Below are positions 39,897 through 61,441 of a DNA stretch of 64,000 nt, in pieces. The notes beneath the pieces were generated by a model. It ran no database searches, was not told where the DNA came from, and worked only from the letters and a program-made list of their open reading frames with translations. Position numbers and translations under genes: made by a program. The stretch comes from Escherichia coli (GTDB lineage: Bacteria > Pseudomonadota > Gammaproteobacteria > Enterobacterales > Enterobacteriaceae), in NCBI RefSeq assembly GCF_003334385.1, contig NZ_QOWN01000015.1; one strand, written 5' to 3'. How positions within the stretch are numbered: the stretch's first letter is position 1; each line of letters begins with the position of its first letter.

Positions 39897-40028
39897 GGTT
39901 CTCCATCTCCTGAATGTGATAACGGTAACAAGTTTAGTTCATCTGACGGAGGGGGAAGGGATGGGAGAGAAAGGAGGCGCTAACGGTTAAATAGCCCGAT
40001 GAAAGGAATATCATCGGGCATAAGGCGA

Positions 40029-40997
40029 TTATGCGAGAACCAAATCCCCCTGCGGATGGCAGGAGCAGGCCAGTACGTAACCTTCAGCGATTTCGGCGTC
40101 GGTCAGCGTCATTGTGCTGCTCACCGTATATTCACCGGAAACCACTTTTGTCTTACAGCAGCCGCAAACACCCGCACGGCAGGCAGCGACAACCGGAACG
40201 TTATTGCTTTCCAGCGCCTCCAGTAGCGTGGTGCCAACCGGGGCGTAAAATTCTCGTGCCGGTTGCAGTTTGGTGAATTTCAGACCGCTGGTCGCCGCTT
40301 CTGCTACTGGGGTGAAGAATTTCTCTTTAAAGAAACGCGTCACGCCGAGCGCTTTCACTTCCTGCTCTACCCAATCCATATACGGAGCCGGGCCGCAGGT
40401 CATCACGGTACGTGAAGCTAAGTCAGGTACACCTGCCAGCAGTTCGCGAGTGAGACGACCAGCGATAAAGCCTTCGGTAACGTTATTTTCTGCCACCAGC
40501 GTTACCGGATAGTTACGCCACTCATCGGCGAAAATAACATCCTGCGGCGTACGCACGTTGTAGATCACCCGCACATCGGCCTGTGGACGGTTCTTCGCAA
40601 GCCAGCGACGCATCGACATAATCGGCGTGACGCCGCAGCCTGCCGCCAGCAACAGGAATTTATCTTCTGCTTTATCGTCGCAGGTAAATTCCCCCATCGC
40701 GTCCGAAAGCCAGAGATAATCACCGCGTTTTACATCGCGCGTCAGCCACTGGGAGCCGACACCGTCATCAATCCGCCGCACGGTCAGGGTGATATATTCA
40801 CTCACGCCTGGCGTGGAGGAAATGGTGTAAGCACGCAGCGTTTCCGCTGAGTTTCGCACGCTGACCAGTGCATATTGCCCGGCGCGATATGGGTAGTAAT
40901 CGTGGCAAATCAGGGAAATCGTCCACACATCCGGCGTTTCTTGCGTAATGTGATGAACCTGCATCCGCCACGGGCATTGATTCGTTGGCATCGTCAT
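40029..40997 (-). CDS. hcr: NADH oxidoreductase Hcr (partner of hybrid-cluster protein)
   Basis: ORF 40029..41003 trimmed to ATG (322 aa); C-terminal 2Fe-2S ferredoxin Cys motif. Confidence 0.9.
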   Translation of the reverse strand: MTMPTNQCPWRMQVHHITQETPDVWTISLICHDYYPYRAGQYALVSVRNSAETLRAYTISSTPGVSEYITLTVRRIDDGVGSQWLTRDVKRGDYLWLSDAMGEFTCDDKAEDKFLLLAAGCGVTPIMSMRRWLAKNRPQADVRVIYNVRTPQDVIFADEWRNYPVTLVAENNVTEGFIAGRLTRELLAGVPDLASRTVMTCGPAPYMDWVEQEVKALGVTRFFKEKFFTPVAEAATSGLKFTKLQPAREFYAPVGTTLLEALESNNVPVVAACRAGVCGCCKTKVVSGEYTVSSTMTLTDAEIAEGYVLACSCHPQGDLVLA

Positions 40998-41008
40998 CGA
41001 CAAACTCC

Positions 41009-42661
41009 TTACGCGCTCAACAGTTGCTTCATGTCTTCTTCAACAGTGGTGATAGAACGCAGGCCGAATTTCTCGTTCAGCACCGCCAGCAGGTCTGGTG
41101 TCAGGAAACCAGGTGCAGTCGGGCCGGTGACGATATTTTTCACGCCCAGAGAAAGCAGCGTCAGCAGAATGACGATCGCTTTCTGTTCAAACCAGGAGAG
41201 CACCAGCGACAGCGGCAGATCGTTGACACCGCAGCCCAGTTTCTCTGCCAGAGTGACAGCCAGAATAATCGCTGAGTAAGCATCGTTACATTGACCTGCA
41301 TCTACCAGACGCGGCAGACCTTCGATATCGCCAAACTCAAGTTTGTTAAAGCGATATTTACCACAGGCGAGGGTCAGGATCAGGCAGTCATCCGGCACGC
41401 TGGTGGCGAAATCGGTGAAGTAGTGGCGCTCGCCGCGTGCGCCGTCACAGCCACCAAGCAGGAAGATATGACGCAGTTTTTCACGGCTCACCAGATCAAT
41501 CAGCGTATCAGCAGCGCCAAGCAGCGTCTGGCGACCAAAACCCACGGTGATAAGGTGCGGAATTTCGCTGTACGGGAAGCCTGCCATCTGTTGCGCCTGG
41601 GTGATAACCGCAGAGAAATCATCACCGTCCAGATGACGCACGCCAGGCCAGCCAACAATGCTGCGGGTCCAGATACGATCGTCATAAGCGCCTACGGTTG
41701 GGTCGATGATGCAGTTCGAGGTCATCACGATGGGGCCAGGGAAACGAGCGAACTCCACTTGCTGATTCTGCCAGCCGCTGCCGTAGTTACCGACCAGATG
41801 CTTGAATTTACGCAGCTCCGGGTAGCCATGCGCAGGCAGCATTTCGCCGTGGGTGTAGACATTAACGCCCGTGCCTTCGGTCTGTTCCAGCAGGTTGTAG
41901 AGATCTTTGAGATCGTGACCGGAAATCAGAATGCATTTACCCGCCGTCGCTTTGACGTTGACCTGGGTTGGCGTCGGGTGACCGTATTTACCGGTTTCGC
42001 CTGCATCCAGAATGCTCATCACTTTGAAGTTCATCTGGCCGATTTCCATTGAACACTCAAGAAGCGCGTTCATATCGGCAGGCCAGGTCCCCAGCCACGC
42101 CATGATTTTATGGTACTGGGCATAAATATCGTTGTCGTATTGACCGAGAACATGCGCGTGTTCCATATAGGCCGCCGCACCTTTCAGGCCATACAGGCAC
42201 AGCAGACGCAGGCCGAGAATGTTTTCGCCAATCGCCGCTTTATCTTTGTTAGGGGTAAATTCTGCTGCCTGACGTTGCAGCTCGCCGAGATCGTCGCTCA
42301 CCAGTTGCAGGTCAGCCATCGGGTTATCGACGCGCGCGTTGGCATCTACAGCCAGGCATTGCGCTTTCAGCGCCTCGCGCAGGGCAATCGCTTCACGAGC
42401 GTAGCCGACAATACGCGGAGAATCGAAGTTAACGTTGGTCAGGGTTGAGAAAAAGGCACGTGGCGCGAAGCTGTCAACATCGTGGTTGATGATGCCGTAT
42501 TCACGCGCTTTTACCGCCCAGGCAGAAAGCCCTTGCAGCGCCGCGATGAGTAAATCCTGAAGGTCAGAAGTTTCCGCCGTTTTACCACACATCCCCTGCG
42601 CGTATGAGCAGCCGTTTCCTGCCGGAGTACGGATAGTTTGTTCACATTGCACACAAAACAT
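41009..42661 (-). CDS. hcp: Hybrid-cluster protein Hcp
   Basis: ORF 41009..42667 trimmed to ATG (550 aa); N-terminal Cys motif MFCVQCEQT. Confidence 0.93.
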
Positions 42662-42757
42662 GATCACACCTTTTAAAGTTATATTTAATATACATGTTTA
42701 AGGTTAAGACGCTTAACGCGGGGATAAAAGGGATTTTTCATGCAACTTTAAGGGAGA

Positions 42758-42771
42758 TTGATTTAGCGCAA
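42758..42771 (-). promoter_or_regulatory. Candidate FNR-type site upstream of hcp
   Basis: TTGAT-TTAG-CGCAA about 100 nt upstream of hcp ATG; 8/10 match to TTGAT-N4-ATCAA. Confidence 0.35.
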
Positions 42772-42804
42772 TTTTGGCGGCAGGGATCTACCGCCAGAGA
42801 GGTA

Positions 42805-43704
42805 TTACGCAGAGAAAAAGGCGATGAGGATCGGCACTAACAGGCTAAGAATAAAACCGTGAACAATTGCCGCCGGGACCATATCCAGCCCGCCAGTACG
42901 TTGAAGAACGGGCAGGGTGAAATCCATTGATGTGGCACCGCATAAGCCCAGTGCAGTAGAGCGGCTGCGGCGAATCAGCCCAGGGATCAACATAATAGCA
43001 ATCAGTTCACGGGCCAGATCATTAAAAAACGCCGCGCTCCCGATTACCGGACCAAAAGATTCGGTCAATAAAATACCGGAAAGAGAATACCAGCCGAAAC
43101 CGGAGGCCATTGCCAGCGCGGTATTGATGGGGAGATCAAGAATAAAGGCGTTAATTAAACCACCAATTAATGAACTGACAACCACCACCACGGCGACAAT
43201 CATTCCCCGGCGATTAAGGACAATCTGCTTTAAGGTCATGCCATTATTGCGCAACTGAATACCAACGAGGAAAAGTAGCAAAATTAACGTGTATTCACTG
43301 GCTTCGGTCGCGTGTTGTAAGAAAGCCAGTCCACTTAGACCAATGGCAAAACCAATCACTACTACGCCGCACAGTTTTAGCGACTCCAGCGCCATCGCAA
43401 TACGCGACGGGAGTTTTTCTTGCTGATGGTGGTTGCGCCACGGCAGGCCTCGCTCCAGCCACATCAGGGCGGCAATATTACACAGTAAAATAACGGTAAT
43501 ACTGACGGCAGAATAATGCAGAATCGCCAACAGGTTACTGGCGAGGTTATCGAGAAACGCCAGACTGATACCCATAAAAAAGAGAATAAGGTAAACCATC
43601 CAGCTTAATAGCTGATTAATAACTTTTAACGCAGCTTGTTGGCGGAGCGGAATGAGGTAACCCACAATCAGGGGAACCAGAATGATTAACAGCCCAGAAA
43701 ACAT
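42805..43704 (-). CDS. lysO: L-lysine exporter LysO (YbjE)
   Basis: ORF 42805..43752 trimmed to ATG (299 aa); multi-TM. Confidence 0.88.
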   Translation of the reverse strand: MFSGLLIILVPLIVGYLIPLRQQAALKVINQLLSWMVYLILFFMGISLAFLDNLASNLLAILHYSAVSITVILLCNIAALMWLERGLPWRNHHQQEKLPSRIAMALESLKLCGVVVIGFAIGLSGLAFLQHATEASEYTLILLLFLVGIQLRNNGMTLKQIVLNRRGMIVAVVVVVSSLIGGLINAFILDLPINTALAMASGFGWYSLSGILLTESFGPVIGSAAFFNDLARELIAIMLIPGLIRRSRSTALGLCGATSMDFTLPVLQRTGGLDMVPAAIVHGFILSLLVPILIAFFSA

Positions 43705-43916
43705 GAAAACCCAGTCCTTGCAAAGATGAAGTCGAAATGCGCGATGACACACTACTGAAAGCGGAAGGACGAGTAAAGTTGCAATTAAAAGGAAATGTTA
43801 TGCATAAGGAGCAGTAGAGTATTCGTTTTCATTTAAAGATATTCTTGCGCTTTAATTACAAACTGCACCGATGTTGGTGGCGTCAAAATCGCCGAGGCGT
43901 TCCCTGAAGGCCGGGG

Positions 43917-44894: not shown

Positions 44895-45319
44895 ATCCAC
44901 CTCAATTAAAAATTGACCCTGTGAAAAATATGGTCGTTTTATAGGGTCGTCGTAAAAAAGTGACGACGGAAATAATGCGCGGCTATTTTAAAAACGAAGG
45001 CGAGTCATTCACCAGATAAATAAATCCAGTAAATTTGATTTAGGGCAACAGCGGGTTGCCCCATATAGTCATTTGTCTGATTGACAGTGTAGTGCACGCA
45101 AAAGATTTAATCCTTTAGGCGTAATAAAAAATAATTTATCATGCTAATTATTTGATTTTGTTGTTTTTGCAGACTTATCAGCAAGAGGGAGTATAACGCG
45201 ATTATTCGCTCATTTTTCAGACATTTGCCATGCTTAAATGTGATGTCATCACGTATTAGCAAGGCCTTTCCCGTTATACTGCCAGCGTAAAGGATAAGTC
45301 ACATATTTCTGGAGGGGAT

Positions 45320-61014: not shown

Positions 61015-61441
61015 TCAAATTCTCCCGTCATTATCACCTCTGCTACTTAAATTTCCCGCTTTATAAGCCGATTAAATGATGAATAAACGCCCCTGTTAAT
61101 GAATATCTGGCATGTTGTACTAAAAATCGATGTTTTGCTTTGACAATCCCCTGGTGTTTTGCGAAAACATTCGAGGAAGAAAAAAAACAGTATTCTTATA
61201 TGCGCATAACCATGCATGTAAATACCATGTTTACCGTGCTAGTGAAATCTACGTATGGCGTGGACAGACGCCATTCGTGATGTCGATAGCTGCCACAAGG
61301 CAACGGTCTTCTCACCGTAGACCCAGGCATTGCGCGCCGTGAATCTTCATGATTTCGGTCTATCGTGACGGGTAGCGACTCTGAACAGTGATGTTTCAGG
61401 GTCAGACAGGAGTAGGGAAGGAATACAGAGAGACAATAATA

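Follow-up and report, generated by a model that had tools for sequence, protein, structure and literature searches.

FNR and NsrR operators at the promoter of the Escherichia coli hcp-hcr operon

Which regulators act on the promoter of the hcp-hcr operon, and how might they bring about its response to anaerobiosis and nitrosative stress? We have addressed this in a stretch of E. coli DNA of 64,000 nucleotides (the whole of which we call the window) that is 100% identical to E. coli K-12 MG1655. Within it a gap of 143 bp separates hcp from lysO, the stop codon of which lies at 42805–42807. We are highly confident that this segment is where hcp-hcr has its native promoter in E. coli K-12, switched on by FNR and off by NsrR by the mechanism that we propose below. 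A sequence-only reading of the locus had placed an FNR-like half-site pair and an NsrR operator here, and had put forward scoring with weight matrices and comparison with ChIP-seq data as checks. It omitted two features, a NarL/NarP site at 42789–42804 and an NsrR-like element at 42726–42748. The features of the locus are collected in Table 1.

Table 1. Features of the hcp-hcr locus, with positions in the window; signed positions are relative to the transcription start
Feature	Position	Strand	Remarks
Hairpin GCCCGATGA-N8-TCATCGGGC followed by TATTT	39994–40019	−	10 nt past the hcr stop; read directly from the sequence
hcr coding sequence	40029–40997	−	322 aa, NADH oxidoreductase, reduces Hcp; RefSeq annotation of the identical MG1655 DNA
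hcp coding sequence	41009–42661	−	550 aa, hybrid cluster protein, ATG at 42661; RefSeq annotation of MG1655
NsrR operator, 11-1-11 inverted repeat AAGTTATATTT-A-ATATACATGTT	42676–42698		−6 to +17, centre +6
hcp-hcr transcription start (+1)	42692	−	Marked as experimentally mapped in Fig. S1 of Rodionov 2005 (PMC1274295), AAACATG(T)A
Probable −10 hexamer TAACCT	42701–42706	−	−14 to −9; inferred
Second, weaker NsrR-like 23-mer AAGTTGCATGA-A-AAATCCCTTTT (hcp strand)	42726–42748		−56 to −34, centre −45
FNR site TTGCGCTAAATCAA (hcp strand)	42758–42771		Centre −72.5; the + strand reads TTGATTTAGCGCAA
Stem-loop GGCGGTAG-ATCC-CTGCCGCC, lysO 3′ end	42776–42795	−	No U tract; overlaps the promoter-proximal NarL/NarP heptamer
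NarL/NarP 7-2-7 heptamer pair TACCTCT-CT-GGCGGTA (hcp strand)	42789–42804		Centre −104.5, directly after the lysO stop

The two genes are adjacent and co-oriented, and the 11-nt gap between them contains a GGAG Shine-Dalgarno sequence, with the hcp stop codon, the GGAG and the hcr ATG all within 11 nt. The hcp product scores 815 bits against the NCBIfam model NF003658 (cutoff 367) and 767 bits against TIGR01703, and the hcr product 640 bits against NF007964 (cutoff 383). The equivalog models for Hcp and Hcr are both above their curated cutoffs, identifying a hybrid cluster protein/Hcr reductase operon, and with the MG1655 annotation this confirms the assignment made in the sequence-only reading. 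The hairpin beyond hcr probably forms the 3′ end of the operon. It was missed by a consensus terminator scan, the sole match of which lies inside the hcr coding sequence.

We scored the window with NsrR and FNR weight matrices trained on published ChIP sites from which those of hcp had been left out. The 23-bp 11-1-11 core AAGTTATATTTAATATACATGTT scores 25.9 bits, ranking first of 63,978 window positions and above 96% of the training sites. This value was attained in none of 100 dinucleotide shuffles of the window, the mean maximum of which was 14.1 bits. The motif had been called correctly, but its coordinates (approximately 42676–42699) were out by one base, as AACATGTATATTAAATATAACTTT is the reverse complement of the 24-mer at 42675–42698, with the core at 42676–42698. 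For hcp, Table 4 of Mehta et al. 2015 (PMC5320621) gives exactly this 23-mer, which in CFT073 lies under an NsrR ChIP-seq peak. It is the second-best 11-1-11 site of that genome, and hcp is up 44-fold in nitrate respiration; as relayed by Mehta et al., hcp was bound in the K-12 ChIP-chip experiment of Partridge 2009 too. In a Salmonella nsrR mutant hcp mRNA is 284-fold higher, and the promoter is a routine reporter of cytoplasmic nitric oxide, the Phcp::lacZ fusion pNF383 serving for NsrR and NO. The operator overlaps the core promoter, as it runs from −6 to +17 when counted from the published start, and this position suggests that NsrR would repress by occluding the start point.

The FNR 14-mer scores 12.8 bits with a matrix of 61 ChIP-bound sites (hcp excluded), ranking third of about 64,000 positions. 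It departs from TTGAT-N4-ATCAA in two places, and only 8% of the training sites score lower. Matches this good are expected by chance at 1.43 ± 1.21 positions per 64 kb in shuffles, and three are observed; by sequence alone the match at hcp is weak and not significant. Sequence statistics do not suffice to call the FNR site, which needs context, conservation or ChIP data, and the call is convincing because the site lies in the 143-bp intergenic region, is conserved and is covered by published ChIP data. For hcp, the sequence listed by Myers et al. 2013 (PMC3688515) is exactly TTGATTTAGCGCAA; it falls beneath a peak in FNR ChIP-seq, and its PatSer ln p of −11.6 passes their threshold of −10.75 (Table S6). 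All four peak callers recovered this peak, which an earlier ChIP-chip study had also seen (Table S5), and their Table 1 gives an FNR site at −72.5 and places hcp-hcr in category 1, that of direct FNR activation. The exact FNR 14-mer and the exact NsrR 23-mer therefore both lie under published peaks, and the interval 42758–42771 proposed for the half-site pair was right to the base. Subtracting the published start at 42692, a literature value, from the FNR centre at 42764.5 gives 72.5, and thus a site at −72.5, one of the distances at which activation by FNR is possible (−41.5, or about −61.5, −71.5/−72.5, −82.5 and so on). By the same arithmetic the start is consistent with the −72.5 of Myers 2013.

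The FNR sites of hcp and aqpZ/ybjD agree at 13 of 14 positions. We rejected a longer module duplicated between them, since only the 14-mer is common.

Conservation was followed in 101 distinct Enterobacterales hcp upstream regions, the identity of which to E. coli has a median of 0.77 and a minimum of 0.40. The FNR and NsrR sites stand out as conserved blocks within variable flanks. Most columns of the FNR 14-mer are at least 80–95% identical, with one spacer column at 60–80%, and the adjoining columns fall below 60%. The proximal NsrR site scores at least 18.3 bits in all 101 loci. The spacing between the centers of the two sites is 77.5 bp in most loci; in the others whose best NsrR match is the proximal operator it ranges from 75.5 to 83.5 bp, with one outlier at 89.5 bp that has a weak FNR site (L028).

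The hcp leader, counted from 42692, is 31 nt long and contains AAAGGTG. From its position TAACCT is probably the −10 hexamer; it agrees with TATAAT in three of six bases, A2 and T6 among them. Conservation of T(−14) is at least 95%, and TATGCT or TATCCT is found at the same place in other genera. A strict σ70 consensus scan of 42500–43000 returned no promoter, as one would expect of a promoter that needs an activator and has a poor −35 element, and an intrinsic terminator scan of the same interval found none. An Rfam search of 42400–43100 at E ≤ 1 gave no match, and the leader and the lysO hairpin therefore lie outside the curated RNA families.

We propose that one promoter, starting at 42692 on the minus strand, drives hcp-hcr. 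Without oxygen, [4Fe-4S]-FNR would bind its site at −72.5 and activate RNA polymerase in a class I manner, which is activation via the C-terminal domain of the α subunit. Holo-NsrR on the palindrome would block initiation because the palindrome adjoins the probable −10 element, just downstream of it, and covers the start point. Reduction of nitrate or nitrite generates nitric oxide, which inactivates NsrR; the nitrosylated iron–sulfur cluster would cause the protein to leave the DNA, and the FNR-dependent promoter would then fire. NarL/NarP at −104.5 may add a further nitrate- and nitrite-dependent boost. The operon encodes Hcp, which acts as an anaerobic nitric oxide reductase and as a hydroxylamine reductase, and Hcr, its NADH-dependent reductase. 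Under dual control by FNR and NsrR, hcp-hcr would therefore be expressed only in cells that lack oxygen and are at the same time exposed to nitrosative stress. Such control had been suggested in the sequence-only reading, and it is supported by direct FNR activation, NsrR ChIP and derepression in published data. The identity, scores, conservation and in vivo occupancy of the sites come from this analysis or the cited papers. Class I activation, the binding of NarL/NarP at −104.5 and what site mutations do are taken from secondary citations and background knowledge, and inactivation of NsrR by NO is likewise background.

Could the conserved sites have another explanation? At 12.8 bits, with about 1.4 equal matches expected per 64 kb and three seen, the FNR-like 14-mer might be a chance consensus match and the anaerobic control of hcp indirect or exerted through another site. 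We find this barely credible for a 14-mer that lies exactly under a peak called four ways and seen earlier by ChIP-chip, and that is nearly invariant in 101 loci with divergent flanks and at a nearly fixed distance from the NsrR site. In Aeromonas, where no NsrR-like site was found in the hcp upstream region, a consensus FNR site is kept there at the equivalent distance from the ATG. The palindrome overlaps the start point and is rich in A and T, as sequence there often is, and NsrR belongs to the same (Rrf2) family as IscR. It is nonetheless a very slim chance indeed that it is part of the core promoter or the leader, or is bound by another member of this family such as IscR, given the score from a matrix trained without it, which exceeds nearly all training sites and every shuffle, the NsrR ChIP-seq peak above it, the conservation of both half-sites and the strong derepression of hcp in nsrR mutants. 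A further suggestion arises from Myers et al. 2013 (PMC3688515), where there is no σ70 ChIP peak at hcp, a “sigma-E site” is annotated, and Rhodius 2006 is cited for σE dependence. The operon might then be transcribed mainly from a σE promoter, with FNR and NsrR acting on a different holoenzyme. We regard this as most improbable. The best match to GGAACTT-N15–17-TCAAA/TCTGA on the hcp strand within 42600–43000 is only 8/12, a quality shared by 1,490 sites in the window, and we have rejected a σE promoter at hcp as without support. Neither hcp nor ybjW appears in the main text of Rhodius 2006, and the conserved TAxxCT hexamer at −14 to −9 fits a σ70 −10 element. Repression by NsrR could explain the missing polymerase signal, as the cultures were grown without nitrate or nitrite.

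The remaining alternative is that nitrate and nitrite induce hcp chiefly via NarL/NarP at 42789–42804, with NsrR in a minor role. NarL/NarP binding at the hcp promoter has reportedly been observed (Filenko in 2007, Chismon in 2010). The heptamer pair at −104.5 differs from TACYYMT-NN-AKRRGTA at two positions; five matches of this type occur in the window against 2.8 expected, at least five arise in 16 of 100 shuffles, and taken on its letters the pair is not significant. A NarP site is marked at this position in Fig. S1 of Rodionov 2005 (PMC1274295), and the pair is conserved in the Enterobacteriaceae with lysO upstream. Yet the four genera Yersinia, Serratia, Dickeya and Proteus lack it while keeping the FNR and NsrR sites, and part of its conservation can be accounted for by the overlapping lysO hairpin, the left arm of which is common to the heptamer. 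Moreover, deletion of nsrR alone gives a very large derepression. We therefore hold a leading role for NarL/NarP to be very unlikely, and prefer control by FNR and NsrR with NarL/NarP perhaps in an accessory role.

The lysO hairpin itself is conserved. The folding energy of the stem-loop alone, in a 50-nt context, is −16.5 kcal/mol; that of the 76-nt region around it is −21.7 kcal/mol, with z = −4.9. Across 38 distinct sequences every cell of the stem is paired, with compensatory changes at two pairs, and the covariation score was attained in none of 500 shuffles. The E. coli fold also offers an outer stem between the lysO stop region and the TTGCGC half of the FNR site. We dismissed this by inspection, since in most other species its upstream arm is not the same, reading for example GCCTGAT where E. 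coli has GCGTAAT.

The hcp-hcr promoter has reportedly been described by Filenko, Browning & Cole 2005, Filenko et al. 2007 and Chismon et al. 2010. Both operators are already known and neither is new; Rodionov et al. 2005 (PMC1274295) predicted the FNR and NsrR sites and marked them in Fig. S1 with the NarP site and the mapped start, and the sites are described also by Myers et al. 2013 (PMC3688515) and Mehta et al. 2015 (PMC5320621). The published E. coli K-12 promoter is the same DNA at 100% identity, with the FNR 14-mer, NsrR 23-mer, NarP site and start as printed, and there is no difference for the FNR or main NsrR site. As this promoter is among the best-characterized NsrR targets the result adds nothing to its biology. 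Its value is one of calibration, since two operators that experiments have validated were located from the bare letters with an error of at most one base.

The operator can be compared with those of E. coli ytfE and hmp, with which it has in common the 11-1-11 repeat AAGATGCATTT-N-AAATGCATCTT. All three overlap core promoter elements and belong to the same ChIP-defined regulon. The hcp operator differs in T/A substitutions in both halves (AAGTTATATTT and AACATGTATAT), and in being paired with an upstream FNR activator site. The E. coli nrf and nir promoters, like that of hcp, combine an anaerobic signal through FNR with a nitrate and nitrite signal through NarL/NarP. FNR binds at −41.5 (class II) in nrf and nir, in contrast to −72.5 in hcp, where the main NsrR site overlaps the start point. 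Like hcp, pnrf responds to NsrR, which reportedly acts there at an upstream site (Browning et al. 2010). Elsewhere hcp is controlled by HcpR in anaerobes, by NorR2 with σ54 in Vibrionales and by DNR in some γ-proteobacteria (Rodionov 2005, PMC1274295). These systems regulate the same gene (hcp, often with hcr) with the same logic of induction by nitrogen oxides at low oxygen, but the regulators and motifs are different.

Finally, the second NsrR-like element scores 18.0 bits, the second-best match in the window. Flanked by the FNR site and the −35 region, it is 51 bp, or about five helical turns, away from the main operator, and always begins 9 nt after the FNR 14-mer. It is partly conserved: of the 101 loci, 43 have a score of at least 12 bits here and 26 one of at least 18 bits, where the null frequency is at most 0.00075, and in several genera (some Yersinia, Trabulsiella) it outscores the proximal operator. 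Its distal 11-mer is listed for CFT073 by Mehta 2015 (PMC5320621). We suggest tentatively, and with more doubt than conviction, that this is a second functional NsrR operator, and separately that the lysO hairpin may link termination or read-through of lysO to the activation of hcp. With NsrR bound at −45, FNR could then be kept from contacting the α subunit of the polymerase, or the two operators could act cooperatively; pnrf would be a precedent, because there too NsrR reportedly acts upstream of the core promoter (Browning et al. 2010). The 23-mer at −45 or the hairpin may already have been described elsewhere, notably in Chismon 2010 or Partridge 2009, and both are small refinements, of interest only to those working on the hcp promoter.

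The hcp promoter contains a strong match to an NsrR operator and a much weaker match to an FNR site. We scored the entire window, together with 100 dinucleotide shuffles of it, using weight matrices built from published sites with those of hcp left out: 61 ChIP-bound 14-mers for FNR (Myers 2013, Table S6; PMC3688515) and 25 23-mers for NsrR (Mehta 2015, Table 4; PMC5320621). The NsrR operator scores 25.9 bits, the highest of 63,978 positions and above 96% of the training sites. None of the 100 shuffles reached this score, the mean shuffle maximum being 14.1 bits. At 12.8 bits the FNR site comes third in the window, with only 8% of the training sites below it, and the shuffles contain 1.43 equally good positions per 64 kb. 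Judged by these scores against the shuffles, the NsrR operator is therefore unmistakable as a sequence match, and the FNR site matches weakly and depends on further evidence.

Both elements had been proposed in a sequence-only reading. Its FNR-like TTGATTTAGCGCAA lies exactly where it was placed, at 42758-42771. Its NsrR string is present as the reverse complement of 42675-42698, with the coordinates (approximately 42676-42699) one base off; the canonical 11-1-11 element is 23 bp in length, and the matrix score upholds it.

Comparison with ChIP data, which that reading had suggested as a check, agrees for both sites. The exact 14-mer lies beneath an FNR ChIP-seq peak, with ln p of -11.6 against a threshold of -10.75, and the peak was called by all four peak callers and in an earlier ChIP-chip study (Myers 2013, PMC3688515). 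Table 1 of the same paper places the FNR site at -72.5 and lists hcp-hcr as directly FNR-activated, citing Filenko, Browning & Cole 2005. In strain CFT073 the exact 23-mer lies beneath an NsrR ChIP-seq peak and is the second-best palindromic site of the genome; hcp was up 44-fold in nitrate respiration, and the K-12 ChIP-chip of Partridge 2009 likewise showed hcp bound (all from Mehta 2015, PMC5320621). In a Salmonella nsrR mutant hcp mRNA is 284-fold higher, and a Phcp::lacZ fusion is a routine reporter for inactivation of NsrR by cytoplasmic NO. Rodionov 2005 (PMC1274295) predicted FNR, NsrR and NarP sites from seven enterobacteria, with the mapped transcription start at the T of AAACATGTA, window 42692. 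Thus the observation of FNR and NsrR sites at hcp-hcr is confirmed and its regulatory interpretation supported, and both sites are already known, having been described and experimentally validated between 2005 and 2015.

The 3-kb stretch around the hcp promoter is 100% identical to that of E. coli K-12 MG1655, and is found in 5,425 of 5,426 complete E. coli genomes, one lacking the region. In this collection it also maps to six places in plasmid-labelled records, and in strain O169:H41 2014EL-1345-2 the hcp intergenic region is divided between two places. RefSeq annotates ybjT, ltaE, poxB, hcr, hcp, lysO (ybjE) and aqpZ, all on the minus strand of the window. An 11-nt gap containing GGAG separates hcp from hcr. 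The hairpin beyond hcr likely marks where the operon ends, ahead of poxB, which is a separate gene; a strict terminator scan did not report this hairpin. The regulatory region comprises the 143 bp from the hcp ATG (42661) to the lysO stop codon (42805-42807).

Features of the hcp-hcr operon and its promoter (window coordinates; promoter positions relative to the transcription start)
Feature	Window	Strand	Promoter position	Remarks
hcr	40029-40997	-		NF007964, 640 bits (cutoff 383)
hcp	41009-42661	-		ATG start, 550 aa; NCBIfam hydroxylamine reductase NF003658, 815 bits (cutoff 367)
Hairpin GCCCGATGA-N8-TCATCGGGC, then TATTT	39994-40019			10 nt past hcr stop codon
NsrR operator	42676-42698		-6 to +17	
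Probable -10 hexamer TAACCT			-14 to -9	inferred from position
Second NsrR-like 23-mer	42726-42748		centre -45	hcp strand AAGTTGCATGA-A-AAATCCCTTTT; between FNR site and -35 region
FNR site	42758-42771		centre -72.5	
NarL/NarP 7-2-7 pair TACCTCT-CT-GGCGGTA	42789-42804		centre -104.5	

The architecture fits the textbook mechanism. Under anaerobic conditions FNR activates hcp-hcr from its upstream, class I position, and holo-NsrR bound over the start point would keep transcription from initiating until its cluster is destroyed by NO. With nitrate or nitrite, NarL/NarP would provide an additional boost. Class I activation by FNR and the NO chemistry of the NsrR cluster are established. Site identity, scores, conservation and occupancy come from this analysis or the cited papers; occlusion of the start point by NsrR, and TAACCT as the probable -10 hexamer, are proposed from position. 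A remark in Myers 2013 (PMC3688515) hints that a sigma-E promoter drives hcp-hcr, but the sequence gives this no support: the best match is 8 of 12, and the window has 1,490 sites scoring as well. The lack of a sigma-70 ChIP peak at hcp in that study would be explained more simply by NsrR repression in a medium without nitrate or nitrite.

The window has five matches to the NarL/NarP consensus where 2.8 are expected, so that the hcp match alone is not significant, and its occurrence at hcp is restricted to the Enterobacteriaceae. Its promoter-proximal heptamer is also the left arm of a stable stem-loop at the 3' end of lysO (GGCGGTAG-N4-CTGCCGCC, 42776-42795), and therefore part of the heptamer conservation may reflect the hairpin. 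The 76-nt region around the stem-loop has a folding z of -4.9, and full pairing is retained in 38 distinct sequences, with compensatory changes at two pairs. No U tract follows it.

Conservation was examined at hcp loci found with a 20-nt pattern within the first hcp codons, one genome per species; as this pattern carries no upstream information, the test is unbiased for upstream DNA. It gave 120 loci, of which 114 extended 230 nt or more upstream. All Enterobacterales loci have their best FNR match 101-128 nt before the ATG and an NsrR-like palindrome near the ATG. Most loci have 77.5 bp between the centres of the FNR and NsrR sites, and the remainder having the proximal operator as top NsrR match have 75.5 to 83.5 bp; the one outlier, L028, at 89.5 bp, has a weak FNR site. 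We aligned 101 distinct non-Aeromonas upstream regions (identity to E. coli median 0.77, minimum 0.40). Three sharp conserved blocks, separated by variable DNA, emerge: the FNR 14-mer, the NsrR palindrome and, at -14 to -9, a TAxxCT hexamer. The proximal NsrR site scores at least 18.3 bits in all 101. In the Aeromonas loci (L007, L010, L012, L014, L015, L021, L027, L033, L034, L047, L089, L091, L107 and L111) a consensus FNR site, mostly TTGATCTGCATCAA at -108.5 relative to the ATG, comes immediately after a canonical terminator. The matrix scan found no NsrR-like site in their upstream regions, so NO control there is either exerted by another regulator or absent. One record titled Martelella alba BGMRC 2031, an alphaproteobacterial name (L086), has an hcp start and promoter of Enterobacterales type, with TTGCGCTATATCAA and an NsrR palindrome, AAGATGCATATTAAATGCATCTT, that is nearly perfect and scores 30 bits; the record may be misnamed or contaminated.

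The candidate NsrR element at -45 scores 18 bits, the second-best NsrR match of the whole window. Its start invariably falls 9 nt past the FNR 14-mer in the species compared. Of the 101 Enterobacterales loci, 43 reach 12 bits or more at this element and 26 reach 18 bits or more; the null frequency is at most 0.00075. It outscores the proximal operator in several loci (some Yersinia, Trabulsiella), and has degenerated in Salmonella, Citrobacter and Enterobacter. Its distal 11-mer is listed for CFT073 (Mehta 2015, PMC5320621), and pnrf offers a precedent for NsrR acting from further upstream.

Elsewhere in the window, trxB is preceded by its published NsrR site (ATGTTGTACTAAAAATCGATGTT, 61112-61134), one of the training sites, which scores 13.7 bits. 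NsrR-like AAGTTGCAATTAAAAGGAAATGT (43776-43798), 72-94 nt upstream of the lysO start, has a half-site similar to that at -51 of hcp; its 15.5 bits are close to the best chance match in 64 kb, and it is therefore probably fortuitous. The best FNR match of the window, TTGATTTAGGGCAA in the aqpZ/ybjD intergenic region (45035-45048, 13.75 bits), coincides with an FNR ChIP-seq peak reported by Myers 2013 (PMC3688515). It agrees with the hcp FNR site at 13 of 14 positions, and outside the 14-mer the two regions have nothing in common. A NarL-like 7-2-7 match (45108-45123) lies 74 bp from it.
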